A DNA stretch of 64,000 nt from Patescibacteria group bacterium (GTDB lineage: Bacteria > Patescibacteriota > UBA1384 > CAJBMM01). Below the pieces are notes generated by a model, which made no database searches, was not told where the DNA came from, and saw only the letters and a program-made list of their open reading frames with translations. The translations under genes were made by a program, and so were the position numbers. Location of the stretch: positions 302,481 to 366,480 of the forward strand of contig JBAZWC010000001.1 in NCBI GenBank assembly GCA_041660565.1, given 5' to 3'. Positions within the stretch are counted from its first letter, which is position 1, and each line of letters begins with the position of its first letter. Shown in pieces: positions 2,183-54,883 of this stretch.

Positions 2183-3016
2183 TTATTCCTTATCTTTAAT
2201 TTCTTTCTTCTTTGGCAAATAGTTCTCGTTAGTAATTACTTTTTTACCGGTTTCTTGTTCTAGCTCAATTCTAGCATTTTTGGCGATACCACCGCCTTTT
2301 ATACCAGCAATTTTATTTGGCTCAAATCCAGTGGCTTTATCTGTTTCGGCTATCTTACGGGTAGATAGCTCTGCCAGCGCGGTGAAAATTAGCTCGGCTT
2401 CAGACATATGATCACGCAGATTTTGTTTTGAAAGTCCTTTAATTTGTTTGTGTTTACCAACAGTTAGCCCGCTCCATTCTTGATGAATCACATTTGTTAG
2501 AATAGCAAATTCGCTTTGCTCTTCTATTCCATTATTTTTCCAGTAATCGGTTAGTTTATTTCTAGTTTCTTGCCCCATCATCCTTTGTTGAATCCATTTT
2601 TCACTCCGACCGAATCGTTGCCAGTTTTCTCTAGCGCGATTTATCGCTTTTTCCGGATCTTGAATTTCTTGGATTCTCTCGTAGCCAACTTTAGACAACC
2701 AGAGCTTAAACGGTTCTGCTTTAGGTGATGGGATCGACTGAATAATACGCAGAATAGCCTGGGTTGTGGCGCAATCCGTCAAGTATTTTTTTCCATCTGA
2801 CGATTCTAGTTTCAGTTGTCGACAAAGTGTCGACAACTCTACACCATCCTCTGAATTTACACGGATTTTCATTTTGAACCAATAGTCTCGCGCATTAACA
2901 CTGTTAGTTAGCGTCTCGACTACGTCAACCACTGAGAAATACCATACCGATTCCTTACTATCCCAGACTCGTCTAATTTTCTTGCCTTCGAATAACGCTA
3001 TTTCAAGATCGGTCAT
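2183..3016 (-). CDS. BRO-N domain / DinD-like (DNA-damage-inducible protein D family) protein
   Basis: N-terminal pattern ...IRRVWDSKESVWYFSVVDVVETL...ARDYW typical of BRO-N; DinD-like size (277 aa). Confidence 0.5.
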   Translation of the reverse strand: MTDLEIALFEGKKIRRVWDSKESVWYFSVVDVVETLTNSVNARDYWFKMKIRVNSEDGVELSTLCRQLKLESSDGKKYLTDCATTQAILRIIQSIPSPKAEPFKLWLSKVGYERIQEIQDPEKAINRARENWQRFGRSEKWIQQRMMGQETRNKLTDYWKNNGIEEQSEFAILTNVIHQEWSGLTVGKHKQIKGLSKQNLRDHMSEAELIFTALAELSTRKIAETDKATGFEPNKIAGIKGGGIAKNARIELEQETGKKVITNENYLPKKKEIKDKE

Positions 3017-3095: not shown

Positions 3096-3232
3096 GACAG
3101 ACGTCCCCGACATTATATTCGGGGATCCAGAAATAGACTTTTTCATAGACTGCCCCGAAGCGCGTTCGGGGTGGCTGGCGCCAGATTCTAGACGAAGTCT
3201 ACCCCGTGCTGTGCCACGGGGCGGGAATGACA
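3096..3232. repeat. cluster of truncated palindromic-repeat fragments (..gtccccgacattatattcggggatccag..; catagactg..; ..gcgggaatgaca) at left junction of GC-rich island
   Basis: Matches to repeat families at 8657, 9419, 21101, 41704. Confidence 0.55.
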
Positions 3233-3260: not shown

Positions 3261-3297
3261 ATAAAGAAAAGGCCCCGGGCACGGATGTGCTGGGGCC
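3261..3297 (-). terminator. rho-independent terminator (stem ggccccgggcac/gtgctggggcc, T-run on minus strand)
   Basis: GC hairpin followed by ttttctttat on coding strand, just downstream of stop at 3343. Confidence 0.6.
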
Positions 3298-3342
3298 TTC
3301 TTGGGGCGGGTAGGTTACGTGGACATCTCCGTCTACGACGGC

Positions 3343-3900
3343 CTAGTGCGTCTCCAACGCCGACGCGGGGTCGGTCTGGCCGCCCAGGTTGCCTGTGCCA
3401 GGCGCGCCTCCAGCGAAACCAAGCTGATCGGTTGCGACTGGCGGGTCGTCGGGCTCGGGTTCGCCGGTAGGGACCTCGTGGGTCAGACCGAAGATCTCCT
3501 CGAGCGTGTCGCCGGTTCCAGGCTCTTTGGGCTTGGGTTCGGGCTCGCCGGTCTCGGGCTCGGCCTTCTTGACGACCTCGTAGCCGAGTGTTCCCAGCGT
3601 GAAGGCCAGTGCGTCAATGCCCGACTTGATGCACTCGGGAACCACGCGCTCGGTGGTCCCATCCGCATTGACGATCAGACTGACGCTGCAGCCGGCGCCC
3701 TGCATCACCCACAGCCCGATCTGCTTGACCACTTCCTCGGCGGCCTTCGCGTTGCCGAAGTCGCCAACCGGATACTGCGTCTCGGTCACGTCGCCGCACG
3801 CCACCTCGGGAATAACGGCGTACACCACACCCCCTACTGCGACGGCCCGAACGACCTGGCGTACGTCAGCCACCAACCTTGGTGCGATCAAGTACGGCAT
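3343..3900 (-). CDS. hypothetical protein, GC-rich foreign-looking gene A (start MPYLIAPRL...), acidic Pro/Glu-rich C-terminus
   Basis: RBS GGGAGG-5nt-ATG, GC3-rich codons, own terminator; opposite-strand ORF 3301..3939 judged artifact. Confidence 0.45.
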   Translation of the reverse strand: MPYLIAPRLVADVRQVVRAVAVGGVVYAVIPEVACGDVTETQYPVGDFGNAKAAEEVVKQIGLWVMQGAGCSVSLIVNADGTTERVVPECIKSGIDALAFTLGTLGYEVVKKAEPETGEPEPKPKEPGTGDTLEEIFGLTHEVPTGEPEPDDPPVATDQLGFAGGAPGTGNLGGQTDPASALETH

Positions 3901-4041
3901 GTGCTTCCTCCCTGTGGAGTAACTCACAGATGTTTGTGAGCCAAGCCTGCTATTGGCTTGGGTTAGACAAGAAATACTTCTTTTCTAACCTAAACCTTAA
4001 GTAAAACTATTATTATATTGTTCAGTTTCTAAACTGGATGT

Positions 4042-4070
4042 ATTTTAGTAATTATTTATAGTTTTGTCAA
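4042..4070 (-). promoter_or_regulatory. sigma70-like promoter for gene A (TTGACA-17-TAAAAT) followed by ~150-nt leader with two small hairpins
   Basis: Read on minus strand in AT-rich spacer. Confidence 0.4.
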
Positions 4071-4129
4071 TACTTATTTATATTTTATGTGATGGGGTCG
4101 ATGGTTTTTGCATATTCCAAAGCACGGTA

Positions 4130-4166
4130 GTAATGAAAACGGCCGGGGCGCGGATGCGCCCCGACC
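4130..4166 (-). terminator. rho-independent terminator (ggccggggcgcggatgcgccccgacc + T-run), same family as 3271 and 4795
   Basis: Hairpin with conserved loop gGATGc, followed by gttttcattac on minus strand. Confidence 0.6.
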
Positions 4167-4187
4167 GATTGTCAGGCTTGGTGCCGG

Positions 4188-4700
4188 CTACATGCCGGCG
4201 GAGGCCTCAGCGTGTGAGTTGCCTCTGACGTTCACCTGCATCGTGAACGTCACAACGGTACCGCTGGTGTAGATATACACGTCAGCGGTACTTCCATCCA
4301 GGTACGAGTGTACCGCCGGGGTGGTGTACCCCGCGGCTAGCGCAACCCCAGCGCCCATGCATCCAGACGACGCGAATCCGTCATCGGCCTGGATGTTGCC
4401 CGAGCACCGACCACTTGCCGTGACATGGAGCGGCATTGGCGTGCCGGTGCCAATCCAGTACCACGTGGTGGTCGATCGGGCCGTGGCCACAGCAGACGAC
4501 AAGTTTGGGAAGTACCCCTCTGCGTAGAGGGTGTTCCCGCTGACCCAGACGTCAGCGAACTCCTTCGACTGGCTGGTGATGACCAGCCCGCTCGGGACGC
4601 ATGTCCAGAAACCGGTTGGCAGACCACCGCCAGACGCCTTAGCCGACGGGACAACAATCTGCCCCGTTGCCATCAGAAGTGCTACAACCAGTGGATACAT
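4188..4700 (-). CDS. small secreted hypothetical protein, GC-rich gene B (signal peptide MYPLVVALLMATGQIVVPSAKA; G/T/S/A-rich, 4 Cys)
   Basis: RBS GGAGG-6nt-ATG; N-terminal hydrophobic signal; own promoter and terminator. Confidence 0.5.
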   Translation of the reverse strand: MYPLVVALLMATGQIVVPSAKASGGGLPTGFWTCVPSGLVITSQSKEFADVWVSGNTLYAEGYFPNLSSAVATARSTTTWYWIGTGTPMPLHVTASGRCSGNIQADDGFASSGCMGAGVALAAGYTTPAVHSYLDGSTADVYIYTSGTVVTFTMQVNVRGNSHAEASAGM

Positions 4701-4748
4701 CTACGTCCTCCGTAGGGTTTTTGTACTGCATCCAGGCGTACACGGCAT

Positions 4749-4777
4749 ATATTAGCATAAGTTTTTAATTTTGTCAA
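4749..4777 (-). promoter_or_regulatory. sigma70-like promoter for gene B (TTGACA-17-TAATAT)
   Basis: Near-consensus hexamers in AT-rich spacer. Confidence 0.5.
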
Positions 4778-4784
4778 CATTTTT

Positions 4785-4821
4785 GCAACAAAAAGGGCCG
4801 AGGCGCAGATGCGCCCCGGCC
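4785..4821 (-). terminator. rho-independent terminator (gggccgaggcgcagatgcgccccggcc + T-run)
   Basis: Third member of the conserved terminator family. Confidence 0.6.
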
Positions 4822-4833
4822 ATTCGGGCTATG

Positions 4834-5613
4834 TTAGCTCGCGGTCAGAGTGAACAGGGATGTGCCCTCGGTGAAGTAGGCGGCGTCCGCAATATCCAAC
4901 ATCAGTAGCTGATCGCCACCACCCCTCACAACCACCACCCCCTCGTTCTGTCCTTTGGCTTGATTGGCTACAACGCGGGTTCCGGGCAGAATCACCTTGG
5001 CGTCTGCCGGAATAACGACGCCGGTGACGTAGCACCTGACAAACCAAAGGAATTCCAGTAGCCCACCGGGGATGACGCGTTTTGGGATGTGATTCCCATG
5101 CACTGCCACCGGAACGCCGAGGTTAACGGGCACGTCGTCCGTGGTGATGAAATGCGTGGACAGATCTGGCACAACTGAGGCGCAAGGCAACGATTCACCA
5201 GCTGTCGTAGCTGGCTCCCAGTTGATCCATGACTTGATGTTCGCCTGCGTCGGAGCAAGCCGCTGATCAGCCAGTGCCTGCTCGAACGGCTCGCACAGTC
5301 CAATACCCGAACCATTTTCAAGCATCCGCCGGACAAGTCTGGAATACGCGTCCGACCGTAGCAATAGGTCCACGTACACCCCCATCGACACCATCAATAC
5401 CACCGTACTGGGTAGTTTGACAGCACCATCATCGGATATGCTCAGCTGATTGGGATCCAGCTGATATTGCACGCCCCCGTTATTGCCAAGCACCCGCAGT
5501 AACGCGCTGATATCGAACTGGTGCGGGACCCGATGGGTGACGCATCGCACATCACAATCCGGCCGGCGCGTCACATAGCCGGCTGGCGTGTCGCTTAGCC
5601 TTATCGCTGGCAC
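4834..5613 (-). CDS. hypothetical protein, GC-rich gene C (GTG start, RBS GGAGGA)
   Basis: 259-aa ORF, GC-rich, own terminator; opposite-strand/alternative-frame ORFs judged artifacts. Confidence 0.4.
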   Translation of the reverse strand: MPAIRLSDTPAGYVTRRPDCDVRCVTHRVPHQFDISALLRVLGNNGGVQYQLDPNQLSISDDGAVKLPSTVVLMVSMGVYVDLLLRSDAYSRLVRRMLENGSGIGLCEPFEQALADQRLAPTQANIKSWINWEPATTAGESLPCASVVPDLSTHFITTDDVPVNLGVPVAVHGNHIPKRVIPGGLLEFLWFVRCYVTGVVIPADAKVILPGTRVVANQAKGQNEGVVVVRGGGDQLLMLDIADAAYFTEGTSLFTLTAS

Positions 5614-5935
5614 CTTGGTTCCTCCGTTGCGCTATCTAAGCGCGGTGTGAATGTACTGCCGCGTACATTAAATCACTTTTTGTCATAAAAGTCCACTAAA
5701 ATAAAGTAACGGTTCACAACAATATGAGTGTTCTCGTTCGAGGAGTTCGGAAAACGACGAGAACTATCTACAAATTAGTTCTCGCTACGCTCGAACAAGA
5801 AAGTCTGTTTGATAACTGTGCACTTTTATAAAATATAATCTGACAAGGGGTTGACAGAATTAAATCATATCTGTTATTATTAGTGCATCACGAGAGAGAA
5901 ACGAACTGGCAACTACGTGTTGCCTGTAACGCCTC

Positions 5936-8656: not shown

Positions 8657-8725
8657 TGTCATCCCCGCCCCGCTAAGCGGGGCATTGGGACGCTAAGCGT
8701 CCCGACGTTCTATTCGGGGATCCAG
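8657..8725. repeat. double-hairpin palindromic element, family GTCATCCCCGCCCCGCTAAGCGGGGC..GGGACGCTAAGCGTCCC..ATTCGGGGATCCAG
   Basis: Copies at 21101-21231 (with insertion), 41763-41824 (reverse), fragment at 3096-3130. Confidence 0.7.
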
Positions 8726-16249: not shown

Positions 16250-16281
16250 CCCGCGCCGGCCATAAGGCTAGCGCGGGTAAC
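16250..16281 (-). terminator. GC-rich hairpin terminator (acccgcgccggccataaggctagcgcgggt)
   Basis: 8-bp GC stem directly downstream of stop at 16292, T/A-rich tail on minus strand. Confidence 0.45.
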
Positions 16282-16291
16282 TTGACAGTGA

Positions 16292-16579
16292 TCACGCGAC
16301 GATTTCGCGCTCGAGGACCTGCATTCCGTTGACGCGTCTACAGGGGTTGCACTTCAAGGCAAAGATCAACCCGCACGACGTACACTGGATTGGCCAGACA
16401 TGCCCACCATATCGAACGGCGTCTCGGGCATCGATCGTGAAGTCACCATGCTCGCAGCAGTAACCATCAGTGGACGAGTCAAGAATAATACGCTTGTCCT
16501 TCACGCCAGACTGGTGCACAACGATCTCTCTCAAAGCCATCACCCCCTTCAATGCGAAGAGTAAGTCTCTCTTGTTCAC
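16292..16579 (-). CDS. small Cys-rich hypothetical protein (CCEHGDF...CTSCG...CNPC) in a GC-rich mini-island
   Basis: 95-aa ORF, GC-rich relative to flanks. Confidence 0.3.
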   Translation of the reverse strand: MNKRDLLFALKGVMALREIVVHQSGVKDKRIILDSSTDGYCCEHGDFTIDARDAVRYGGHVWPIQCTSCGLIFALKCNPCRRVNGMQVLEREIVA

Positions 16580-16903
16580 TACGAACAGCTTTTGGCTAAC
16601 TAGGCGCTGGTGGACATCGCAGAGGTCGAATTCGGCTCAGCGTCCCGCCGGCTTCTGCCGCACTTCTTGCAATACGCGGCCGGGGTGAAGTGATTGGTGC
16701 CGTCGAACCGACACGTCCACGAGGTGGCGTCAACAAAAACGCCTGACCGCCTCGCAACAGAGGTTTCGACCAACCTAGCCGACTCGATTCCAACAAGGTA
16801 TGGTGTGCCCAATCCCGTACTCCTGGAGATTTGATAGCGATATTATAACAGATTATTTGATTTATTAAAAGGGCAACCCTGCAAATCTATCTGACTTACA
16901 GGG

Positions 16904-17098
16904 CTAAACGACATCCAGGTTGTCCCAATCTACAAAGCGCACCATAGCGCTTCTAAGCACAAAGCCACACCAACCGCACCGAATCTTGCTCCCTCCTCGT
17001 TTCTTGCGGACATGACCGCAATGGCAACATACGTGCTGCAAATCTTCTGGTTGGATGAAATCCTCAACCAGAACGACGTCAACGCACAGTTCGTCCAT
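16904..17098 (-). CDS. small zinc-ribbon-like hypothetical protein (VCCHCGH...CGWCG); the N-terminal extension in the ORF track is encoded by a repeat element
   Basis: Start set at MDELC; CxxC...CxxC. Confidence 0.3.
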   Translation of the reverse strand: MDELCVDVVLVEDFIQPEDLQHVCCHCGHVRKKRGGSKIRCGWCGFVLRSAMVRFVDWDNLDVV

Positions 17099-17119
17099 AA
17101 TCCGACCTCCAATAGGCGT

Positions 17120-19439: not shown

Positions 19440-19484
19440 TAGTGCCTATCCTTTTACCCAATTGGTCAAATTAGTTAAATGGGA

Positions 19485-20111
19485 TTAATTGGAATCTTTT
19501 TTAAGATAAGTACCCAGCATTGCCAGGAAGGTGGTTAAAACCAATCCAATCACAACCGCTAAGGTAATATCTAGTGCCCAAAACGGCTGCACTTTAACAC
19601 TCACCGGGCCGGAAGCACGTAAAACATACTTTTCGTCAGTTTTGGCGGCATTAGTCTCGTCGGTTAAGCCTTGCAAAACCGTGTTGGCAGAGTTGAGCAA
19701 CTTTTCGGATTGAACCGAATCGGTTGATCGCAGGGTGATGTCCACAGTGGCTGGCTGAAACTGTTTAACCGTAAATAATTTGCCTAATTGAGTTGATGAG
19801 CGTAAATCTGGCAAATCAACATCGGCGTTGGCATAAATACTCTTAACAACGCTTGGTGAAATCATCCAGTTACCAACAGTTTGTGCAAACAAACCACCAG
19901 CTTGCTGAGCGTAATATCCATCATACAGATAGTATGGGGTGGTTTTTTGATCAATGATTGAAACACGGTCAATGGTTAGAGTTAACGAGGTGTCGTATCT
20001 GGTTTTTCCGGTAGCAATGAATAGCGCGGTTATAAGCACCACAAGCAGTGTACCAAAGATGATTAATTTCTTGGCGCGACCAAATATTTTGATGTAATCT
20101 ATTAGTTCCAT
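19485..20111 (-). CDS. Wzz/YveK-like polysaccharide chain-length determinant-type membrane protein (N- and C-terminal TM); start trimmed to MELIDYIKIF
   Basis: Wzz N-terminal pattern, 2 TM; ORF-track N-terminal extension is encoded by the terminator element; RBS AAAGGAT before chosen ATG. Confidence 0.45.
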   Translation of the reverse strand: MELIDYIKIFGRAKKLIIFGTLLVVLITALFIATGKTRYDTSLTLTIDRVSIIDQKTTPYYLYDGYYAQQAGGLFAQTVGNWMISPSVVKSIYANADVDLPDLRSSTQLGKLFTVKQFQPATVDITLRSTDSVQSEKLLNSANTVLQGLTDETNAAKTDEKYVLRASGPVSVKVQPFWALDITLAVVIGLVLTTFLAMLGTYLKKDSN

Positions 20112-20172
20112 TTTTATCCTTTCGTAAGTTAAATACTCTATTTCATTTATACCATCATCGCGCCACAATAGC

Positions 20173-20209
20173 AAAAGGAAACCGCCCGGGTGGCGAACCA
20201 CCAAGGCGG
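20173..20209 (-). terminator. conserved cassette terminator ggaaaccgcccgggtggcgaaccaccaaggcgg + T-run (copy 1)
   Basis: Imperfect hairpin followed by tttcctttt on minus strand; identical copy at 20617-20655. Confidence 0.55.
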
Positions 20210-20221
20210 ACAGGCACCGGT

Positions 20222-20536
20222 CTAGTAGACCCGGGAGAACAACGGCTCGATAACTGCGACATACTCGCCAATAGGCAAAGCTCGAGGCATTACGGATCCC
20301 TTCAGCAACTGGGCAATGTTGTACACGATGCCCTCGATTTCCTCGCGGCCAAACTCCGACGCAACGTCTGAGGGTTCGACAACCAGAGTAAGTCGCACAT
20401 CTTTTCGACCAAATACCGGTTCTACCCTCTCGACGGCAAATGTCCGACAGGAAACATCCGCAATGTACCTCAATAACTCATCCGACGGAGTCCATTGATG
20501 CTCTCCGTCATCGTACCCAGACACTAATACTCGCAT
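20222..20536 (-). CDS. hypothetical protein, GC-rich cassette gene P1 (MRVLVSGYDDGE...)
   Basis: RBS GGGAGAC-ATG; conserved promoter box upstream and conserved terminator downstream. Confidence 0.4.
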   Translation of the reverse strand: MRVLVSGYDDGEHQWTPSDELLRYIADVSCRTFAVERVEPVFGRKDVRLTLVVEPSDVASEFGREEIEGIVYNIAQLLKGSVMPRALPIGEYVAVIEPLFSRVY

Positions 20537-20553
20537 CAATGTCTCCCATGAAC

Positions 20554-20595
20554 CATGATGGCATTAAGATACTATTTTAGAACATCTTTGTCCAG
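20554..20595 (-). promoter_or_regulatory. conserved 42-bp cassette promoter/5' box (catgatggcattaagatactattttagaacatctttgtccag; TGGACA-17-TATCTT on minus strand), copy 1
   Basis: Identical sequence at 21025-21066. Confidence 0.5.
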
Positions 20596-20616
20596 ATCAA
20601 GTCAGAATAACAATTA

Positions 20617-20655
20617 ATAAAGGAAACCGCCCGGGTGGCGAACCACCAAGGCGGA
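20617..20655 (-). terminator. conserved cassette terminator, copy 2
   Basis: Same hairpin as 20173-20209 followed by tttcctttatt. Confidence 0.55.
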
Positions 20656-20683
20656 GTGAACCAGGAAGAACGTTGCCGAAGTC

Positions 20684-21007
20684 CTAGGAGAATGTCGCTG
20701 AGAACATCTTTGCGGTGGTTGCCACATCGATGGTGGTATAGGGCGAGAATTGCTTGGTGTAGTCTTGCACCAGCTCTCCAACACGCTTGATCTGCAGATC
20801 GACGTTTTGAAGACTACCCAGCTCATCCCACATGTCCGGATTAATGATCCCGAACACATTTACGCTACCACCTGCTGGTGTCTCGCCGTAGCAGATACCG
20901 CCTATCACCACTGAATCGACCAGCGAACACGTGCGCAAAATGGTCTGCACAAGATCACCGACGCCGTCTTGGCGTTCGCTGGGAATTCCATCAATGACTA
21001 CGATCAT
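20684..21007 (-). CDS. hypothetical protein, GC-rich cassette gene P2 (MIVVIDGIPSERQ...), weakly similar N-terminus to P1
   Basis: RBS GGAGGG-5nt-ATG; same flanks as P1. Confidence 0.4.
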   Translation of the reverse strand: MIVVIDGIPSERQDGVGDLVQTILRTCSLVDSVVIGGICYGETPAGGSVNVFGIINPDMWDELGSLQNVDLQIKRVGELVQDYTKQFSPYTTIDVATTAKMFSATFS

Positions 21008-21024
21008 AGTAGCCCTCCGGCACA

Positions 21025-21066
21025 GCATGATGGCATTAAGATACTATTTTAGAACATCTTTGTCCA
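21025..21066 (-). promoter_or_regulatory. conserved cassette promoter/5' box, copy 2
   Basis: Identical to 20554-20595. Confidence 0.5.
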
Positions 21067-21100
21067 GTTTTGTTTATGTGAATTTAATAATTATTATATT

Positions 21101-21231
21101 TGTCATCCCCGCCCCGCTAAGCGGGGCAAAGGAACGCTTAGCGTCCCGACGTCCGTAATCCGTTTGCAGACGATGGCCTCCGGCTCTACGAGCCGATAGG
21201 CTCGGAGAGAGGACACTATTCGGGGATCCAG
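21101..21231. repeat. double-hairpin element (GTCATCCCCGCCCCGCTAAGCGGGGC...ATTCGGGGATCCAG) with a ~55-bp internal insertion that is itself a hairpin (cctccggctctacgagccgataggctcggagagagg)
   Basis: Compare 8657-8725. Confidence 0.65.
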
Positions 21232-21251
21232 TAAAAAATCCATTGTTACCC

Positions 21252-22346
21252 TTAGTTATGCGAGACCAAAGCTAAGATCTTTTCTTTGAATTTGTCTTCC
21301 GAGAACTGCATAGCGCGAAGATGGCAATCCTCTGGCTTAAACTTAGACGAATCAAACGTTTTTAGCTGATCTGCCAGGTTTTCCGCGTCGAGTGAGTCAA
21401 TTAGAATACCGGTGTGTGGCGTGACGATTTCTGCCGCTCCACCAGCGTTTCGGGCGATTACCGGACATCCGGCCGCCAGCGCTTCTACCATAGTAATGCC
21501 AAAATCCTCGGTTTGCGGGGCTAAAAACGCCTTAGCTTGGTACAACCAGTCGTCACGAACTTGATCTGAAACCCGTCCTAAGAATTTGACCGTTGGCCCG
21601 GCTAATTCCTGAAGTCGCTCGCTGTCGTTACCATCACCGATAATCACCAATTTAGTTTGACTCAAATTGGCTGCTTTTATTGCTAAATCAACGTCTTTAT
21701 GCGGTTCGAGGCGCGAAACGATCACAAAAGCGTCTTTAGTGTCACGTTTTTTGATATCAAATCGATCAACGTCTACCGGCGGATTTATTACGGTGCTCGG
21801 TTTATGATAAAACTTGGTAATGCGATCTTGGGTGGTTTTTGAGTTTGCAATAATCACATCTGGCCGCGATGAAGCAATCACATCCCATCGACGCAGGCGA
21901 TGCAGCATAAGCGGCACCAACCCTTTTAACGCGCCGGCAAATCGCCCGCGTTCAATATGGCTTTTGATATCAAACCATAAAAATCGGGTGGGGGTGTGCA
22001 TGTAGCAAATATGTTTCGTATTGGGCTGAGTAATTACGCCTTTGATGAAGCTAGATGAATCTGAAATTACCACGTCAAATTCAGATAGATCAAAACTTTC
22101 CACCGCTCGCGGCATTTCGGCGCGATAGTAGTTAATAAGTTTCTGAATTGCGGGGCGTTTTTGCAGATATGAGGTGCGAATATCCCAATCTTTATACACG
22201 CCGTGAGTACTTTTTTCGTCGTACAGTAATGTAAACACCGGCGCACTTGGAAAAAGCTGATGCAGACTGATCAACACCTTTTCCGCCCCACCATTCTTGA
22301 TGAGGTAGTCGTGAGCTAGAGCGATTTTAGGATTATTGGTGTTCAT
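21252..22346 (-). CDS. glycosyltransferase family 4 (GT-B, GT1-type)
   Basis: C-terminal EX7E-like region ...FGITMVEALAAGCPVIA... Confidence 0.8.
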   Translation of the reverse strand: MNTNNPKIALAHDYLIKNGGAEKVLISLHQLFPSAPVFTLLYDEKSTHGVYKDWDIRTSYLQKRPAIQKLINYYRAEMPRAVESFDLSEFDVVISDSSSFIKGVITQPNTKHICYMHTPTRFLWFDIKSHIERGRFAGALKGLVPLMLHRLRRWDVIASSRPDVIIANSKTTQDRITKFYHKPSTVINPPVDVDRFDIKKRDTKDAFVIVSRLEPHKDVDLAIKAANLSQTKLVIIGDGNDSERLQELAGPTVKFLGRVSDQVRDDWLYQAKAFLAPQTEDFGITMVEALAAGCPVIARNAGGAAEIVTPHTGILIDSLDAENLADQLKTFDSSKFKPEDCHLRAMQFSEDKFKEKILALVSHN

Positions 22347-26000: not shown

Positions 26001-26045
26001 ATTTAAATTAAAACACAAATAACCACAATTTGCAATCAAAGCTAC

Positions 26046-26081
26046 AAAAAAGAACTAGGGCGTTTCTTGCAAGAAACGCCC
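26046..26081 (-). terminator. terminator hairpin gggcgtttcttgcaagaaacgccc + T-run
   Basis: Perfect 11-bp stem; tagttctttttt on minus strand. Confidence 0.6.
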
Positions 26082-26126
26082 TACGTTGGCACAGAGCCAT
26101 CAGTCACAACCACTACGCGATCATCC

Positions 26127-26576
26127 CTAGGCGCAGTTTGTCGAAACAGACAACCAGCCGTGCATCTGGCCGGCTAGTTGACGGAAGAACTTCCGACATC
26201 TTTCGACGTCTACCCGCTGCGCTGTCCCGTTGGCGAGAGTATTCAGAGTCTCCTGAAACTGGATGAACAGGCGCGCGAAATCGTCGGGGGTATTCACCCC
26301 AAAGTCGTCCGGATGGGCGTTAACTACTCCCAGCGCACACCCACAGGCATCAAGCATCTCCACGGTTGGCGCGAACTTGGCGCCGGGATCAACGAACATC
26401 GAGTGCGCTTGCACGACATTCACAATCATCGCTCGCGCTTGGTTTACCGCCCCCTGCTGATCGGGAGATACTTGGCCGCTATTGAGGTATTGACCCAATG
26501 CACCAGAGGCCTTTGACGACATGAAGCCGTAGCGAAACGCTGTCGAACGGTCAAGGCTCATCATTGCGCTAGCCAT
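26127..26576 (-). CDS. hypothetical protein (MASAMMSLDRST...), mid/high-GC single-gene insert
   Basis: RBS GGGGGT-5nt-ATG; own promoter and terminator. Confidence 0.4.
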   Translation of the reverse strand: MASAMMSLDRSTAFRYGFMSSKASGALGQYLNSGQVSPDQQGAVNQARAMIVNVVQAHSMFVDPGAKFAPTVEMLDACGCALGVVNAHPDDFGVNTPDDFARLFIQFQETLNTLANGTAQRVDVERCRKFFRQLAGQMHGWLSVSTNCA

Positions 26577-26660
26577 CTTGGACCCCCAGTCGTAGCAACG
26601 TCGTCCCACACGCCCAGTGCGGCACGACTCTACCTTTGTAATGGTACTCCCCTTGACATC

Positions 26661-26688
26661 ATATTAGTTCATAGACAATCATTGTCAA
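26661..26688 (-). promoter_or_regulatory. promoter TTGACA-16-TAATAT, flanked by inverted repeat CTTGACA..23 bp..TGTCAAG (possible operator)
   Basis: Read on minus strand upstream of 26127..26576. Confidence 0.5.
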
Positions 26689-26695
26689 GCATTTA

Positions 26696-28793: not shown

Positions 28794-29111
28794 TTACCAA
28801 ATCCCCAGCAGATCTTTGACCTCTTGACTGGCCATTATTGAAGGATCCCAAATTGGGTCAAAAACCACCACTACTTCCACGTTAGAATAGTTATTTTTGT
28901 TTAGTTGATCTTTCACTTCTTGAATTAGGCTAGATGCGTACGGGCAAAACGGCGTGGTAAGGGTCATGGTGATTTTAACGTGGCGATCTGTCACTTCGGC
29001 ACCATAAATTAGTCCCAAATCTACAATGTTGATGTTTAGTTCGGGATCAACAACTTTTGAAAGCATCGTATTAATTTTAGGATCTATTTTCATCCTCGTC
29101 ATCCCTGCCAA
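28794..29111 (-). CDS. sufT: SufT/DUF59 (MIP18-like) Fe-S assembly protein
   Basis: DUF59 pattern ...VDLGLIY...TTPFCP; suf operon context. Confidence 0.65.
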   Translation of the reverse strand: MAGMTRMKIDPKINTMLSKVVDPELNINIVDLGLIYGAEVTDRHVKITMTLTTPFCPYASSLIQEVKDQLNKNNYSNVEVVVVFDPIWDPSIMASQEVKDLLGIW

Positions 29112-29525
29112 TCAAGCCAATTTATCCAATTTTGATATACAATCTGACAACCCCTGCCAAGGCAACCAAGCGCACCCATGGCGATTTGGGAACTGAGCTA
29201 CGCCACTTAAACTAATCAAACTGTCTGGCGGATTAGACCCCTTTAAGACTTGGTCGACATCAGAAATTAGCTTTTGAGTTTCGTTTCGACTTTTGCCATT
29301 AACCTCACGACACATTAGCGATGCCGAAGCTTGGCAAATTAGACATCCGTCAACTTGGCATGACACCTTTAATTTACCCAAAGCGACCTTAGCCTGAAGC
29401 TTAATTTTATCACCGCAGCTAAGGTGCGACCGCTCAATTTCAACATCCGGATTTTTTATTCGATCCGCGCCGGTTGGAAACTGGGCTAAATCTAGTAATT
29501 CTTGTTGATAGATATCATTTGACAT
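29112..29525 (-). CDS. sufU: SufU/IscU-like Fe-S scaffold/sulfur acceptor; C-terminus KLDKLA* encoded by ATTGGA repeat
   Basis: Three Cys motifs SCGDKI, GCLICQAS, HGCAWL. Confidence 0.75.
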   Translation of the reverse strand: MSNDIYQQELLDLAQFPTGADRIKNPDVEIERSHLSCGDKIKLQAKVALGKLKVSCQVDGCLICQASASLMCREVNGKSRNETQKLISDVDQVLKGSNPPDSLISLSGVAQFPNRHGCAWLPWQGLSDCISKLDKLA

Positions 29526-31474: not shown

Positions 31475-32846
31475 CTGAGCCCTCCATTTCCAAATCGATT
31501 AACCGGTTTAACTCAATGGCGTATTCAAACGGCAATTCTTTGGTAAACTGGCTAATAAATCCGTTGACGATCAGAGACGCGGCCGCACTTTCTGACAATC
31601 CTCGACTAGTTAGATAGAAAAGTTGAGCGTCACCAATCTTGCTCACCGACGCTTCGTGCTCCACAAACGCCGTTGGTTCGGCAACCTTGATGGTGGGGTA
31701 CGTATCTGATCGTGATCGATCGTCTAACAGCAATGCATCGCATCGAACTCGGTTCTTAACTCCGCTATACCCCCTACCAACGTTTACCGTCCCGCGAAAG
31801 CTGGTCCGGCCGCCATCTTTTGAAATCGATTTGGAAATTATTGTTGATGAGGTGTTGTTTGCCAAATGGATTGCCTTGGCGCCGGCATCTTGGTACTGAT
31901 CTTTGCCTGCATACGCAATGGACAAAATATCACCTTTTGCCCCGTTACCTAACAAATACACGCTCGGATATTTCATCGTTAACCGCGAGCCCAAATTGCC
32001 ATCCACCCACTCTACAAACGCATTTTCATACACAAATGCCCGTTTTGTCACCAAGTTGTAGATGTTTTTGGACCAATTCTGCACTGTGGTATAGCGAATA
32101 TGTGAACCGGGCAACGCGATTAGTTCCACCACCGCGGCGTGAAGCGAATACGTGGAATATACCGGCGCGGTGCACCCTTCTATATAATGAACATCACTTC
32201 CTTCATCTGCGATGATTAACGTGCGCTCAAACTGGCCAAAGCTTTCCGCGTTAATGCGAAAATATGCCTGCAACGGCAAGCGCACTTTGGTATTTTTAGG
32301 CACGTAGATAAAACTGCCTCCCGACCACACCGCCGAATTTAGGGCGGAAAATTTGTTGTCATTTGCCGGAACAACAGACGCAAAATATTTTTTGACGATT
32401 TCGGGATATTCTCTTAAACCCGTGTCCATATCGCAAAAGATCACTCCCTGGTCATCTAACTCTTTTTTGATGTGATGATAAACCACTTCGGATTCAAATT
32501 GCGCCGATACGCCGGCCAGAAATTGGCGTTCCGCTTGCGGAATACCAATTTTATCAAATGTTTGCTTGATATCGTCTGGAACATCGTCCCAACTGTTTTG
32601 CGGCTTGTCAGATGTGGACAAATAATAGGTGATTTGGTCAAAATTAATCTCGTCAATTAGTTTACTTTGTGCCCAAATTGGGAGTTTTTTGGCTAAAAAT
32701 TGAGTGTAAGATTTAAGCCGAAAATCTAGCATCCATTTTGGCTCATTTTTGCGACGCGAAATAGCCTTAACCGTTTCGGCGGTAAGTCCTTTTGGTGTTT
32801 GGTATTTAACTGCGCTTTTCATGGTTCCCTTGTCATTCCGGGTCAA
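31467..32846 (-). CDS. sufB: Fe-S cluster assembly protein SufB
   Basis: Strong SufB signature throughout (…[20 protein letters not shown]…). Confidence 0.9.
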
Positions 32847-32887
32847 TTGGCTTAATTGGATTGATTGGACTAATTGGAAAATTTAAA

Positions 32888-33616
32888 TTATTTATTAATT
32901 TCACTAAACCCAGTGCTATTTACCTTCTGCGATAAATCCGCACCACCGATTCTGACAATCGCTCCGTCTTGCATTACCAACACCCGATCAACTTTGACTA
33001 AATCTAGCAAGCGTTGGTAGTGGGTAATTATAATAATTGCTCGATCAGGTGCACGGTATTGGTTAATAACGTCGGCAACCAGATGAAGTGCATCTACGTC
33101 TAACCCGGAGTCAATTTCGTCTAAGATCAATAATTTTGGCTGCAATACCAATGCTTGCGCCAATTCCAACCGCTTTTTCTCGCCTCCAGACATCCCGTCG
33201 TTTACCGCACGATTAGCGTAGCTTTGATCTAAACCAACCGAGTTAAGCGCCGAAATTAAATTTGACCGAAAACTGGCGGCAGTTACTTTAAGATGAGGAT
33301 GATTTTTAACCGCGGCCCGCAGCATTGAAGCCACGGTTAGCCCCGGAATTTCTATGGGATGTTGCGATGCCACATATATCCCCAGTGCAGATCGTTTGTC
33401 TGCACTTAATTTGGTGAGGTCTTTATGATTAAAAATAATTCGCCCAGCAGAACAGTCGTAATTTGGCGAGCCCATAATGGAAGATACCAGCGTGCTTTTG
33501 CCTGAACCGTTTGGCCCCATTATCGCCACCACTTCGCCTGCTTCAATTTCAAGCGACAGATTCTCAATAATTTTTTTATCACTGGCGTTTACAGATAAAT
33601 TATTTATTTTTAGCAT
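32888..33616 (-). CDS. sufC: Fe-S cluster assembly ATPase SufC
   Basis: Walker A GPNGSGKST, ABC signature, Walker B LLILDE. Confidence 0.9.
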   Translation of the reverse strand: MLKINNLSVNASDKKIIENLSLEIEAGEVVAIMGPNGSGKSTLVSSIMGSPNYDCSAGRIIFNHKDLTKLSADKRSALGIYVASQHPIEIPGLTVASMLRAAVKNHPHLKVTAASFRSNLISALNSVGLDQSYANRAVNDGMSGGEKKRLELAQALVLQPKLLILDEIDSGLDVDALHLVADVINQYRAPDRAIIIITHYQRLLDLVKVDRVLVMQDGAIVRIGGADLSQKVNSTGFSEINK

Positions 33617-33640
33617 TATTCAACTTTCCAATTCATCCAA

Positions 33641-34018
33641 TCAATCCAATTTATCCAATTTGATTGAATGTAATTTTTCAATAATTTCCGCGTTTATTTT
33701 TCTCACTTGAGGAGATGTCTGACACCCTTTATTTTGACAACTGGCGCAATCGGTCAACGCAATCGGCCCATCAACGGCGGTGATTATTTGGGCAAAACTG
33801 ATGGTTTTTGGATCAACTGCCACCCAATATCCCCCTCCCACACCTTCTTTACTCGAAATCAATCCAGCCTGACGCAATTTGTTAGCTAATTGTCGCAATA
33901 TTGATAACGGCAAGTTCGCTTCCCCTGCCACCACATTTAAGCTAATTGGATGGCTAGAATTTGATAATTTAGACATCAGCACCAGCGCATAATCTTGTTT
34001 TTTGGAGAGTTTCAACAT
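33641..34018 (-). CDS. Rrf2 family transcriptional regulator (IscR/SufR-like); C-terminus KLDKLD* encoded by ATTGGA repeat
   Basis: Rrf2 wHTH N-terminus MLKLSKKQDYALVLM..., C-terminal Cys triad. Confidence 0.75.
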   Translation of the reverse strand: MLKLSKKQDYALVLMSKLSNSSHPISLNVVAGEANLPLSILRQLANKLRQAGLISSKEGVGGGYWVAVDPKTISFAQIITAVDGPIALTDCASCQNKGCQTSPQVRKINAEIIEKLHSIKLDKLD

Positions 34019-34194
34019 ATCTAATACCTATTTGTATCTAGTTTTACAGATGTAATAGACGCTTGTCAAATTGGTCTGATTGGATTAATTGGAGCAATTG
34101 GATTGATTGGATTTGAATTTGTTTCGTATTTCGAATTTTGTGCTTAGTGCTTTGTTGACTTGCGCCAACTCGATCCTTAATTCATACTGATATT

Positions 34195-36878: not shown

Positions 36879-36909
36879 TCTTTTTCTAACTCCAATTGGA
36901 TAAATTGGA

Positions 36910-37284
36910 CTAATTGGAATGATTGGATTCTTTTATTGTGACCGATGGTTCGGAACTATAAACCGGCGCCACCGGGCTTGAAAAATGTCCATGATTTACG
37001 TTAGCTGATGTTGAAACCGGAATATCCAGTGCAAACGCCAGCGAATTTGCCGTAGCCACACCTATTCGGGTACCGGTGAAAGACCCGGGGCCGGGATTAA
37101 CCACAATTGCATTTAGATTAGACAGTACAATTTTATTTTGTTTTAACAATTGATCAATTTTTGGCAACAGCTCCGACCCTAAATTACGCCCGGATTCCCA
37201 CGCAATTTGGTCAACTACTTGCTTGTCGATTATGATTTCGAGTTTAGTTGTTTCAGTTGTAGTGTCTATTGATAATATTTTCAT
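36910..37284 (-). CDS. tsaB: TsaB (YeaZ)-like protein, N-terminal domain only (124 aa)
   Basis: SIDTTTE...NPGPGSFTGTRIGVA motif. Confidence 0.6.
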   Translation of the reverse strand: MKILSIDTTTETTKLEIIIDKQVVDQIAWESGRNLGSELLPKIDQLLKQNKIVLSNLNAIVVNPGPGSFTGTRIGVATANSLAFALDIPVSTSANVNHGHFSSPVAPVYSSEPSVTIKESNHSN

Positions 37285-41703: not shown

Positions 41704-41824
41704 GTCATTCCCGCGAAGGCGGGAATCCAGCCTATAATAAAATTCATATTTTTCTGGATCCCCGAATATAATGTCGGGACGCTTAGCGCCCCTAAGTCCC
41801 GCTTAGCGGGACGGGGATGACAAA
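41704..41824. repeat. composite repeat: GTCATTCCCGCGAAGGCGGGAATCCAGCCTATAAT + reverse copy of double-hairpin element
   Basis: Matches 9475-9490 and revcomp of 8657-8725. Confidence 0.65.
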
Positions 41825-41903
41825 GGGCATAACGTCGTTGACTCTATTTGAAGTAAGTGGTACAACTAACTTTGGAAACTTAATCGCTTCACGGGGGTGA
41901 GTG

Positions 41904-42221
41904 ATGGAGATTGCGCTGGTTGAGGTGTACCCACCCGATAACTGTCTTGGTCGGGTGGCAGCGTTCAGAATAGATCAAGAATCGGATACGTTGGAGGGAA
42001 TCCAACTGGCTCAAGACTATACTCGCGAACATGGCACAGATAAGGATCGCGGCCGTGGCCTGCAAGGCCCGCAGAACGGATTCGTGGTGATGGTCGCCAG
42101 AGACGAATATGGGCTTTGGGTGCGCATTAACACCGGGGAGATTGACCCGGACAATGTCTCGCAACTCAAAGCGCATGTTTGCAAGGACTTCTCTTATGCT
42201 TTGAACGGCACTAGCCCGTAG
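41904..42221 (+). CDS. hypothetical protein, GC-rich, paralog 1 (…YPPDNC…LAQDYTREHG…QNGF…)
   Basis: RBS GGGGGTGAGTG-ATG; ~30% identity to next gene; opposite-strand ORF judged artifact. Confidence 0.4.
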   Translation: MEIALVEVYPPDNCLGRVAAFRIDQESDTLEGIQLAQDYTREHGTDKDRGRGLQGPQNGFVVMVARDEYGLWVRINTGEIDPDNVSQLKAHVCKDFSYALNGTSP

Positions 42222-42298
42222 GCCAACCGCCTGCGGGTTGAACTTTGCCATAAAAAATGGTATAACTAACACAACGCTAGCACGACGGAGGGAAACAA

Positions 42299-42652
42299 TT
42301 GAGGATCACGGAGGTTGTGCTGTACCCGACGATGCCTTGCCGTCGCCTGGCATCGTTGAAGTTTGGCCCGTTATCCGATCTGACCGAAGCTGTCTGCCTG
42401 GCGCAGATCTTCACCAGAAGGCATGGCAATGGCGACTTCCTGCCAGATGGACAGATAGGCGTCCAGAACGGGTTCCAGATTCTGCCGTACGAGTCAATAA
42501 ATCGTGCCTGCTCAGTGGTCATATACTCAACAAATGACACCTGTAGGAAACAGTGCAAGGCACTTATCAGCGGCCTTCGAACATCAGGCATTGTCAAAAC
42601 GCCAACCGTCCGCAACGAGATCGAGATCAACAACCCACCATACTGGGCTTAA
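42299..42652 (+). CDS. hypothetical protein, GC-rich, paralog 2 (TTG start; …YPTMPC…LAQIFTRRHG…QNGF…)
   Basis: RBS GGAGGG-6nt-TTG; paralogy on plus-strand frame. Confidence 0.4.
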   Translation: MRITEVVLYPTMPCRRLASLKFGPLSDLTEAVCLAQIFTRRHGNGDFLPDGQIGVQNGFQILPYESINRACSVVIYSTNDTCRKQCKALISGLRTSGIVKTPTVRNEIEINNPPYWA

Positions 42653-42710: not shown

Positions 42711-42795
42711 AGTTAGGGGGCTTAGGGAATTTTAGGGAAGTTAGGGGTACCATCGGCCCTCCCAATGCCCCTAATCACCCCACCCCCCCTAACCA
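42711..42795 (+). repeat. TTAGGG/CCCTAA palindromic element E1
   Basis: G-rich arm (ttaggggg cttaggg..ttaggg..ttagggg) then C-rich arm (ccctaa units). Confidence 0.7.
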
Positions 42796-49604: not shown

Positions 49605-49649
49605 TAACGATAAAGATTATAACACAAAAGAAAGGGAATTGCCAAGACC

Positions 49650-49752
49650 GTTAGGGATTTTTAGGGAGTTTAGGGTTGTTAGGGTGGTTCCTTCCCTAAT
49701 TGGTCCCCCGCTCTCCCAATCACTCCAATCTCCCTAATTCCCCCAATTGCCC
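49650..49752 (+). repeat. TTAGGG/CCCTAA palindromic element E3
   Basis: ttagggatttttagggagtttagggttgttagggtggttccttccctaat...ccctaattcccccaa. Confidence 0.75.
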
Positions 49753-49773
49753 TATTTCTGTTATAATGGCACT

Positions 49774-50919
49774 ATGAAAATACTTGTTTGCACCGAAACC
49801 TATCTTCCAACCATTAACGGCGTCGTTAACTCAATTGAACTGTTTAGGCATCAACTTGAAAAAAATGGCCATCAAGTGGATATTGTCGCCCCACACTCTG
49901 CCGCCGAAAGCTTTAAGTCTAGATCTCACGTTTTTCGCCTACCATCGCTACCTCTGATCGGGCAGCCAACGCATCCGGTAGCATGGCCAAGCAAATCCCA
50001 CATCTCAGCCATCATCAGCGAAACCAAACCAGACGTTGTCCACTGTCAAGGTATGTTTGCCTGTGGCTGGCTGGGTCTAAAAGGTGCGCAAAAGGCCAAT
50101 TTGCCACATGTTTTAACTTATCACACTCATCTTGAGGGATATTCGCACTATGCCGGGCCATTATCGTTCTTAGCCAAACCAATTATGCGCTGGTGGACTA
50201 AAAAAATGTGCAACCAATTTGATTTGGTCATCACCCCATCCCCCAGCATGGCTAAGATGCTCAAGAGTTACAAAGTCAAAACCGACATTGTAGCGCTCCC
50301 AACCGGTATTGAGCTAAAGGATTACCGTTTTAATGATAAGAAAAAATTGCGAGCAATGCTTAAATTTAACCCAGATGAGGTTTATATTTTATCCGCCGGG
50401 CGGTTATCTGAAGAAAAAAATGTCAAACAATTATTAATCGATTTTGGGCGCATTCACGTGCGCAATCCTAAAGTCAAATTATTATTAGCAGGTGATGGCC
50501 CCGAGCGCAAAGCGTATGAAACGATAGTAGAAGCTAGAGGATTGCAATCGGTGGTTACGTTTTTGGGCGCACTAAAACACGAAGATCTAATAAATTACTT
50601 TGTTGCCTGTGATATATTTGCCTTTCCATCGCTAACAGACACCCAAGGCATCGTATTAATTGAAGCGATGGCGGCCGGATGTCCCAGCGTGGTGTACGAT
50701 ATGCTAGGCCCGGGCGATATTGTTAAGCACGAGGTAAACGGGTTAAAGGCAAAAGTGGGCACGGATCAGTTTTTCCAACACTTATTTGCGCTTGTTTCAG
50801 ACCAAGATTTAAGAGAAAAAATCAGCATCGGTGGCTTAAGAGACGTTAGAAACTACTCTATCGAAAAAACCGCTGATCAATTGCAACAGATCTACGCTGT
50901 TTTATGTAAGAGGCCATAG
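49774..50919 (+). CDS. glycosyltransferase family 4 (GT-B); leaderless-looking start 5 nt after TATAAT
   Basis: GT1/GT4 C-terminal motif ...GIVLIEAMAAGCPSVV...; start MKILVCTE. Confidence 0.8.
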   Translation: MKILVCTETYLPTINGVVNSIELFRHQLEKNGHQVDIVAPHSAAESFKSRSHVFRLPSLPLIGQPTHPVAWPSKSHISAIISETKPDVVHCQGMFACGWLGLKGAQKANLPHVLTYHTHLEGYSHYAGPLSFLAKPIMRWWTKKMCNQFDLVITPSPSMAKMLKSYKVKTDIVALPTGIELKDYRFNDKKKLRAMLKFNPDEVYILSAGRLSEEKNVKQLLIDFGRIHVRNPKVKLLLAGDGPERKAYETIVEARGLQSVVTFLGALKHEDLINYFVACDIFAFPSLTDTQGIVLIEAMAAGCPSVVYDMLGPGDIVKHEVNGLKAKVGTDQFFQHLFALVSDQDLREKISIGGLRDVRNYSIEKTADQLQQIYAVLCKRP

Positions 50920-50920
50920 G

Positions 50921-51018
50921 GTGTGTTAGGGAGTTTAGGGTTGTTAGGGTGGTTCCTTCCCTAATAGGTTCTACGCTCTCCCAACATCCCTAACGTCCCT
51001 AACTACCCTAACCGTCCT
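50921..51018 (+). repeat. TTAGGG/CCCTAA palindromic element E4 (45-bp core identical to E3)
   Basis: ttagggagtttagggttgttagggtggttccttccctaat shared with E3. Confidence 0.75.
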
Positions 51019-51613: not shown

Positions 51614-51714
51614 ACCAATTAGGGAAATTAGGGTCATTTGGGACATTAGGGGTTCTTTCCCTAATAGGTTCTACACTATCCCAATCCCCCTAATCACCCC
51701 AATCTCCCAAATCG
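51612..51714 (+). repeat. TTAGGG/CCCTAA palindromic element E5
   Basis: aattagggaaattagggtcatttgggacattagggg...ccctaat...cccctaatcaccccaatctccc. Confidence 0.75.
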
Positions 51715-52864: not shown

Positions 52865-52946
52865 GGGCATTTGGGACATTAGGGTTCTTACCCTAATGAG
52901 TACCCCGCACCCCCAATCACCCTAATCTCCCTAATTCCCCAAACGT
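52855..52946 (+). repeat. TTAGGG/CCCTAA palindromic element E6 (overlaps rplY stop)
   Basis: ttaggggcatttgggacattagggttcttaccctaat...ccctaatctccctaattcccc. Confidence 0.75.
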
Positions 52947-54838: not shown

Positions 54839-54883
54839 ATTATTGTCTCCCAATTAATCCCATCAATCCAATTGAGAATAACT

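Follow-up and report, generated by a model that had tools for sequence, protein, structure and literature searches.

Putative PeSL-like cassettes with unrelated orphan genes in one promoter and terminator frame in a Patescibacteria chromosome

As vehicles of small orphan genes, or ORFans, the cassettes found in the hyperplastic regions of T4-type phages are flanked by promoter-early stem-loops (PeSLs) (Arbiol et al. 2010, PMC2839356; Comeau et al. 2014, PMC4122927). The PeSL is a conserved intergenic motif that combines a terminating stem-loop with a strong sigma70-like promoter, which has an AT-rich stretch on its upstream side; recombination between PeSLs produces ORFan insertions, deletions and replacements between sister phages, and yields mini-circles of ~400 bp containing one ORFan and a chimeric PeSL (PMC2839356; PMC4122927). 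The authors of these studies liken the cassettes to integrons and set them apart from morons, in which the flanks lack conservation (PMC2839356). Morons are themselves characterized by a promoter and a terminator of their own and by a deviant guanine-plus-cytosine (GC) content (Cumby, Davidson & Maxwell 2012, PMC3594210). Here we analyse two adjacent single-gene cassettes, with the genes P1 and P2, in a 64,000-nucleotide (nt) stretch of DNA (hereafter the window) from a Patescibacteria group bacterium (assembly GCA_041660565.1, contig JBAZWC010000001.1, positions 302,481 to 366,480).

We lean towards reading the locus as two autonomous foreign single-gene units, in which unrelated genes have been set in one promoter and terminator frame. 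Judged by its parts, its closest known analogue is the PeSL and ORFan cassette of T4-type phages. An initial annotation of this DNA had described two self-contained gene cassettes whose promoter boxes and terminators are identical and whose payloads diverge, and had suggested that conserved frames with variable payloads might mark a cassette system. That architecture is borne out by the present analysis, and the PeSL and ORFan cassettes provide a documented precedent for the idea behind it (PMC2839356).

Two cassettes with identical regulatory blocks

Both cassettes lie on the minus strand throughout (Table 1). Read in that direction, the stop codon of a GT4 glycosyltransferase gene (21252) is followed by a repeat element, 33 nt of AT-rich sequence, promoter box 2, a Shine-Dalgarno sequence and P2; 29 nt further on come terminator 2, a linker, box 1, the Shine-Dalgarno sequence of P1, P1 itself, 11 nt, and terminator 1. 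About 60 nt then lead to a Wzz-like gene, which precedes a DUF4012 gene.

The 42-nt promoter box is 100% identical between its two copies, and so is the 37-nt terminator block, around which a longer 46-nt repeat is 91% identical. Both identities had been noticed in the initial annotation; the second box needed a shift of 1 nt (from 21025-21066 to 21026-21067), and the 33-nt terminator string quoted there is found at 20177-20209 and 20622-20654. Each block occurs twice in the window when up to 3 mismatches are allowed, against 0.00 expected from 100 dinucleotide shuffles, and a short-word BLAST search of the window returned no degenerate copies of either.

A consensus scan calls the box at both copies as a sigma70-type core promoter, TGGACA-17-TATCTT, in agreement with the hexamers and spacing first proposed. 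The identity spans from 1 base before the -35 hexamer to ~12 nt beyond the -10, and the box as RNA is unstructured (z = 0.16 for copy 1). The terminator forms a hairpin of -20.4 kcal/mol (z = -3.0 and -3.9), in which a UUCG loop caps an 11-bp stem that a single U/C mismatch splits into 6 and 5 bp; the U-tract UUUCCUUU comes next. Identity between the copies starts at the first base of the stem. A search of Rfam found no family in 20000-21400 at E-values up to 1. The identical sequence coincides with the promoter and terminator modules; the Shine-Dalgarno sequences, coding regions and short untranslated stretches are all unique to each cassette and lie outside the identical blocks.

Terminator 2, the linker and box 1 together make up a 102-nt composite terminator/promoter motif (20554-20655), in which 32 nt of 75% A+T separate the end of the stem from the -35; this junction sequence exists in the tandem arrangement only. 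At the other end of the locus, the tail of terminator 1 possibly overlaps a putative TTGCTA-17-TATAAA promoter for the Wzz-like and DUF4012 genes. Within the last ten codons of P2 (20701-20712) there is also an exact 12-nt copy of box positions 6-17, CAAAGATGTTCT on the minus strand, where ~0.004 such matches would be expected by chance over the 1 kb of this locus; an earlier box or a recombination joint may have left it behind.

The tandem order is genuine. The linker matches neither the sequence 5' of box 2 nor that 3' of terminator 1, and because it is unique in this respect an assembler passing through a collapsed repeat could not have generated it. Independent Logan contigs (run SRR18595301) match the flanks at every base and end only within repeats: one begins within the 37-nt terminator repeat, exactly 30 nt in, and the other stops inside the 131-nt repeat element. 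For a Logan graph of k = 31, which we take to be the value used, a break at k-1 = 30 nt is expected at a repeat with two left-hand contexts.

Table 1. Features of the cassette locus, and other islets and repeats of the window (positions are those of the window)
Feature	Position	Strand	Remarks
Hairpin-rich repeat element (TGTCATCCCCGCCCCG...TATTCGGGGATCCAG)	21101-21231	+	Between GT4 gene and cassette 2
Promoter box, copy 2 (for P2)	21026-21067	-	-35 TGGACA 21066-21061, 17-nt spacer, -10 TATCTT 21043-21038
Shine-Dalgarno GGAGGG of P2	21013-21018	-	5 nt 5' of ATG at 21007; beyond conserved box
P2 ORF, 107 aa	20684-21007	-	ORF call
Terminator, copy 2	20619-20655	-	Hairpin 20627-20654, then UUUCCUUUA; terminator-like site called
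Unique AT-rich linker	20596-20618	-	Joins terminator 2 to promoter 1; read from sequence
Promoter box, copy 1 (for P1)	20554-20595	-	-35 20594-20589, -10 20571-20566
Shine-Dalgarno GGGAGA of P1	20542-20547	-	5 nt 5' of ATG at 20536
P1 ORF, 105 aa from TTG	20222-20539	-	104 aa from better-placed ATG at 20536
Terminator, copy 1	20174-20210	-	Hairpin 20182-20209, then UUUCCUUUU
Islet	3270-5650	-	54-60% GC; three orphan genes of 259, 170 and 185 aa; between Bro-N and NYN-domain genes
Islet	16250-17100		Three Cys-rich ORFs of 64-82 aa, no family match; own promoters and terminators
Islet	26040-26690		One 160-aa gene; TTGACA-17-TAATAT promoter and terminator
Islet	41901-42652	+	Two paralogues of 106 and 117 aa, 38% identity; hairpin between genes; own promoters and terminators
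TGTCAT-start repeats	9418, 16209, 37295; 17120, 22372, 24028, 36174, 40847; 17227, 22447		
TTAGGG/CCCTAA arrays	42713-42792, 49652-49755, 50917-51011, 51605-51711, 52838-52943, 56347-56449, 57000-57106		
AATTGG/CCAATT motifs	19465-19493, 32841-32893, 34065-34117, 36890-36942, 29108-29132, 33628-33661, 54850-54874		
ORF, open reading frame; aa, amino acids.

One ORF of ~105 aa had been assigned to each cassette, and the lengths found are 104 or 105 aa for P1 and 107 aa for P2. Both look coding because of their length, strand, Shine-Dalgarno spacing and GC pattern by codon position. Out of 2000 dinucleotide shuffles, 11 contained an ORF as long as P1 and 28 one as long as P2; little of either payload is left outside its ORF, and both ORFs run in the direction that promoter and terminator dictate; the Shine-Dalgarno sequence lies exactly 5 nt before the ATG in each; and GC content at the first, second and third codon positions (GC1, GC2 and GC3) is 0.60/0.38/0.58 in P1 and 0.56/0.39/0.61 in P2, which is the coding pattern GC1 > GC2 < GC3. 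For P1 the ATG start is more likely than the TTG. Composition points to a foreign source for both genes, because their GC3 (0.58-0.61) stands above the 0.42-0.47 of five native genes; the payloads as a whole have 52-53% GC and the neighbours 41-46%. The description of these ORFs as GC-rich accordingly applies relative to their surroundings only (52% versus about 42-45%). Both predicted proteins are acidic, with isoelectric points of 4.7 (P1) and 4.1 (P2), and neither has a predicted membrane segment.

With a BLASTP E-value of 16, the weak N-terminal similarity once seen between P1 and P2 lacks significance, and their payload DNA aligns at noise level. Beyond themselves, neither has a homologue among 5.8 billion proteins in a word-indexed search: the self-match of P1 is an 83-aa JGI gene call, the gene not being called in the NCBI annotation, and that of P2 is the NCBI entry 'MAG: hypothetical protein WC773_01585 [Patescibacteria group bacterium]' (MAG, metagenome-assembled genome), on a 516,109-bp contig. 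Exact-protein look-ups with five start variants of P1 and P2 found no record. No family in Pfam, NCBIfam, PHROGs or PADLOC matched either protein, sequence searches of the PDB gave nothing better than E = 0.02, and no Foldseek match to the P1 model had an E-value below 0.1. Neither the locus DNA nor the two proteins had a match in 50,697 phage records (BLASTN and TBLASTN), nor did the locus DNA match plasmids (BLASTN). A full HMMER pass with P2 through 1.84 billion representatives produced one non-self match, a 1704-aa repeat protein encoded beside an RND pump gene on a 9.8-kb contig. We rejected it as a homologue, since its ten near-identical repeats, at ~27 bits each, inflate the summed E-value, and the match is probably spurious. 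An accessory role of P1 and P2 exerted by binding other proteins, for example in immunity or anti-defence, is our guess.

Origin of the shared frame

Because the payloads are unrelated and the blocks are identical, unrelated genes seem to have been placed into one standard frame. Two other histories were considered and rejected. Divergence after a tandem duplication fails on the contrast between frames that are 100% identical and 320-nt payloads that align at noise level. A single mobile element consisting of terminator, linker and promoter fails on the outer copies, which are clean half-sites with no remnant of the other half.

Under the reading that we favour, each unit would be expressed from the same sigma70-type core promoter, through a ribosome-binding site of its own, as a small, acidic, soluble orphan protein, and the shared intrinsic terminator would end the unit and insulate it from its neighbours. 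The most likely route to such a pair would be homologous recombination within the short frames, as described for PeSL and ORFan cassettes. The order A-x-B-A-y-B, with x unrelated to y, would be the product of a single crossover within A or within B: a circle of box, P2, terminator and linker (~460 bp) would integrate into a resident unit of box, P1 and terminator, and the reverse reaction would free a complete circle of 472 bp (with P2) or 445 bp (with P1). Alternatively, the pair may have arrived in one piece from a donor in which several genes already had a common frame. Cassette exchange at the locus is a plausible hypothesis. Transcription, termination, the route of recombination, a phage or mobile-element source, and the role of the proteins are what we infer from sequence.

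Several observations weigh against this reading. Only two copies of each block are known: no further copies of box or terminator, which the initial annotation had proposed to look for, were found in the window or in public collections, where exact-pattern scans covered box or terminator in metagenome and viral contigs and the terminator only in genome contigs, the source genome being absent from the genome and metagenome sets. PeSLs are documented in T4-type phages only, in which the recombination system acts on patches of <50 bp (the frames here measure 37-42 nt); gain, loss, swapping or circle formation at the present locus is hypothetical. The 64 kb contain no phage gene, and the larger ORFs with Pfam matches are of the housekeeping or envelope kind, except for a Fic and a Bro-N gene. 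The proteins offer little to hold on to, as the sole non-self match of P2 is the probably spurious one to the repeat protein, and the single-sequence AlphaFold models are poor (mean predicted local distance difference test scores, pLDDT, of 54 and 50) and support no particular function. Finally, any adjacent single-gene units will present a terminator followed by a promoter, so that only the sequence identity is special here. The exact coincidence of that identity with the regulatory modules is unusual, and the evidence consists of a single pair.

We think it rather unlikely that Patescibacteria chromosomes harbour a whole cassette platform that works without a recombinase, its frames acting as portable homology arms through which one-gene minicircles of ~450 bp integrate, swap and excise. 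Such minicircles could arrive by phage or by DNA uptake, and the five or more GC-rich orphan islets of the window would be their products. If that were true, it would be the first system of the PeSL type beyond the T4-type phages.

Should the frame shared by P1 and P2 really mediate gene traffic, as in the reading that we favour, the PeSL mechanism, so far a curiosity of T4-type phages, would extend to the chromosome of an ultra-small, host-dependent bacterium. It would offer a concrete, testable route by which streamlined Patescibacteria gain orphan genes and express them with neither integrases nor transposases, and the proteins of all the islets, P1 and P2 included, would then be candidate accessory factors for interaction with phages or hosts. 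Should it not, the locus amounts to a pair of foreign orphans beside a local duplication of promoter and terminator, which would be neat but of little wider consequence.

Among the rival explanations, a small chance is left to a functionally coupled pair, toxin/antitoxin-like or of the defence and anti-defence type, which is co-regulated by one promoter/operator and in which selection or gene conversion keeps the frame. Promoters that are identical would be equally strong and answer to a common regulator, the box holds a small inverted repeat (AAGAT-N13-ATCTT) across the spacer and the -10, and P1 and P2 are both small and acidic, with near-equal base composition. Such pairs, however, are normally co-transcribed and not split by a strong terminator, the family searches described above (PADLOC, Pfam, NCBIfam and PHROGs) gave no match, and coupling leaves unexplained both the identical terminators and the shared frame of unrelated genes.

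The chance is slim that the locus is decaying, functionless foreign DNA, with dead or chance ORFs between blocks that arose by an inconsequential local duplication. The orphan status of P1 and P2, their low-confidence structure models and the fact that P1 is known as a JGI call only would all fit. Against decay stand the ORFs that nearly fill both payloads (joint chance ~8e-5), a strand that fits promoter and terminator, the Shine-Dalgarno sequences at 5 nt, the periodicity of GC by codon position, and promoter and terminator blocks that are intact and identical.

A dedicated variable-gene system with machinery of its own, capturing genes site-specifically in the manner of integrons with the hairpin block as the recombination site, is very improbable. 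At first sight the units do resemble an integron array, with lengths of 445-472 bp, orphans of ~100 aa, one orientation and an imperfect hairpin at the 3' ends. However, a regular-expression search (not a covariance model) found no pair of attC core sites, R''(RYYYAAC)...R'(GTTRRRY), on either strand of 20100-21300; the single GTTRRRY (plus strand, 20128) and the single RYYYAAC (minus strand, 20134) both lie outside the cassettes. The hairpin, 28 nt plus a U-tract, is a plain terminator, both cassettes have promoters of their own, no ORF of at least 200 aa in the window matches an integrase, recombinase, transposase or phage structural family, and the units number two, without copies elsewhere in the window or in the collections searched. 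An assembly artefact, in which two alleles of a single-cassette locus, present in a mixed population, were threaded in tandem, has next to no chance: the source is a MAG, and repeats of 37-42 nt do flank the payloads, but such repeats are shorter than the larger k-mers common in metagenome assemblers, and the unique linker and the agreement of the Logan contigs both speak against it.

Surroundings, other islets and repeats

The cassettes lie within a cluster for cell-envelope polysaccharides, with the GT4 gene on one side and the Wzz-like gene on the other. Pfam assigns the DUF4012 (E = 7.6e-30), GT4 glycosyltransferase and sugar transferase (Bac_transf) neighbours as they had been named; the Wzz-like membrane protein, at E = 0.051, falls below the cut-off of Pfam. 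The window belongs to the core chromosome, encoding Obg, IF-2, GyrA/GyrB, SufB/D, QueA, LepA, MurJ, FtsH, L25, ThrRS and SHMT, along with two cysteine-desulfurase-type aminotransferases. In a Saccharibacteria MAG and a WWE3 MAG, a single ORF of ~210 aa occupies the space between the GT4 and DUF4012 genes, and there is no 1.1-kb insert. This compact spacing fits an insertion in the present genome, although the relatives, whose GT4 proteins reach <=41% identity over the full-length protein among those found, are too distant to prove or date it.

From the GC profile and the ORF table, at least four further GC-rich islets were recognized in the window (Table 1), which are built alike and have frames that are less similar. 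Their ORFs are all without significant matches in Pfam, those scanned have none in NCBIfam, and all show a raised GC3 of 0.55-0.80; the five islets together make up about one tenth of the window. In the islet at 3270-5650 each gene ends in a GC hairpin and a T-tract, the three terminators being 71-87% alike, and two of the genes are preceded by promoters (TTGACA-17-TAATAT and TAAAAT) that are 71% alike. Its 259-aa protein is an orphan too, and an independent Logan contig joins the islet to its native neighbours. By eye, the 170-aa protein has a hydrophobic N-terminus, possibly a signal peptide. Next to this islet (3.3-5.6 kb) are a Fic/DOC-family gene (54-722) and a Bro-N-domain gene (2183-3016), the sole genes with a mobile-element flavour seen in the window. 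The two promoters of the islet at 41901-42652 are related, with GTTGA and TGGTAYAACTAAC common to both. Regulatory frames thus appear related within each islet and loosely alike between islets, and the P1/P2 locus is the sharpest case of a wider habit of this genome, that of holding small foreign orphan genes as single-gene units.

The repeat element beside cassette 2, recognized as such from the outset, is a member of a 69-nt hairpin-rich family; this copy carries an extra structured insert of 62 nt and folds as a whole at -62 kcal/mol (z = -4.0). The family, TGTCATYCCCGYCCCG...TATTCGGGGATCCAG, has two internal GC hairpins closed by ATCCCCG/CGGGGAT and further copies at 8657-8725 (plus strand) and 41754-41822 (minus strand), with a rearranged one at 3116-3232; it had no exact match in viral contigs. 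Three of the four copies abut GC-rich orphan islets (p = ~0.003 in a rough count of intergenic gaps), and their placement beside islets looks non-random. The element at 21101-21231 is a neighbour of the cassettes, and at most a putative part of them.

Other intergenic repeats were also observed. Those starting with TGTCAT, TGTCATTCCGGGCTCGACCCGGAATC and TGTCATTTCGACCC..., some copies of which run into spurious ORFs, look like elements of the repetitive extragenic palindrome (REP) or miniature inverted-repeat transposable element (MITE) type with a common 5' end. At gene ends, TTAGGG-type motifs recur every 9 nt and are followed by inverted arrays of the CCCTAA type; at least one array, that at 56340-56455, forms a long imperfect palindrome (-54 kcal/mol, z = -3.4), that at 49640-49765 reaches only z = -1.3, and these arrays could be bidirectional terminators or protein-binding arrays. 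A second intergenic family with a 9-nt period, AATTGG or CCAATT plus 3 variable bases, has little structure (z = -0.4), and one of its copies sits between the DUF4012 and Wzz-like genes. Farther along the window, on the minus strand, an ORF of 2284 aa (57116-63970) probably encodes a giant surface adhesin; it has seven or more Laminin_G_3 domains, of the concanavalin A-like lectin type, and its DNA contains internal repeats.

Comparison with described systems

The initial annotation is partly supported in its interpretation: its cassette logic is right, the two analogues that it named, integrons and polymorphic toxin/immunity modules, are wrong, and a better one is in the literature (PMC2839356). 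Polymorphic toxin/immunity loci similarly consist of tandem small ORFs, fast-evolving or orphan, in one orientation. The present locus has no toxin gene next to it or elsewhere in the 64-kb window, no match to toxin or immunity domains and no common coding segments at the 5' or 3' ends; what is conserved in it is regulatory and not coding.

Correia elements of Neisseria, and likewise REP sequences and bacterial interspersed mosaic elements (BIMEs), are short intergenic repeats that give terminators or promoters to unrelated neighbouring genes. The blocks described here likewise supply a promoter and a terminator to unrelated genes. They differ in that they are not inverted repeats of each other (box and terminator are not complementary), have no terminal repeats or target duplications, and occur at a single locus of the window, where the true miniature repeat is the separate element at 21101-21231.

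With integrons, chromosomal cassette arrays and attC clusters that lack an integrase the locus has in common tandem short cassettes of one orientation, ~100-aa orphans, a 3' imperfect hairpin and, if the proposed route holds, circular intermediates. Beyond the lack of core-site pairs and integrase matches reported above, its hairpin is a 28-nt terminator and its cassettes have sigma70-like promoters of their own, whereas integron cassettes are generally promoterless and driven by the integron promoter Pc; any recombination here would, moreover, be homologous and not site-specific.

The locus resembles morons in that each unit has, at the sequence level, a promoter and terminator to itself, a GC content unlike that of its neighbours, and the appearance of an addition between genes that belong together. 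Morons, however, sit in phage or prophage genomes, and the 64-kb window has no prophage genes; their flanks, which differ from one moron to another, are not thought to drive mobility (PMC2839356).

The PeSL and ORFan cassettes are the closest match to the locus. Hairpin, AT-rich linker, promoter and then a gene-specific Shine-Dalgarno sequence follow one another in the composite motif at 20554-20655; the motif is conserved between copies that flank unrelated orphans; each unit would be transcriptionally insulated; the spacings of 445 and 472 bp are near the ~400 bp of the ORFan210 mini-circle; and no dedicated recombinase is needed, short frame homology being the proposed vehicle. There are also differences. 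The locus lies in a bacterial chromosome among core genes, with no phage structural or replication genes in the window, and is known with two copies, in the window and collections together, versus dozens in phages. Its copies are 100% identical, whereas phage PeSLs are consensus-like, and 32 nt upstream of the -35 it has a stem-loop that is a complete intrinsic terminator. Indels, replacements and mini-circles are known for the phage PeSLs; at this locus they are hypothetical. Weighing these likenesses and differences, we describe it by analogy as a pair of PeSL-like, moron-like orphan cassettes in a Patescibacteria chromosome.

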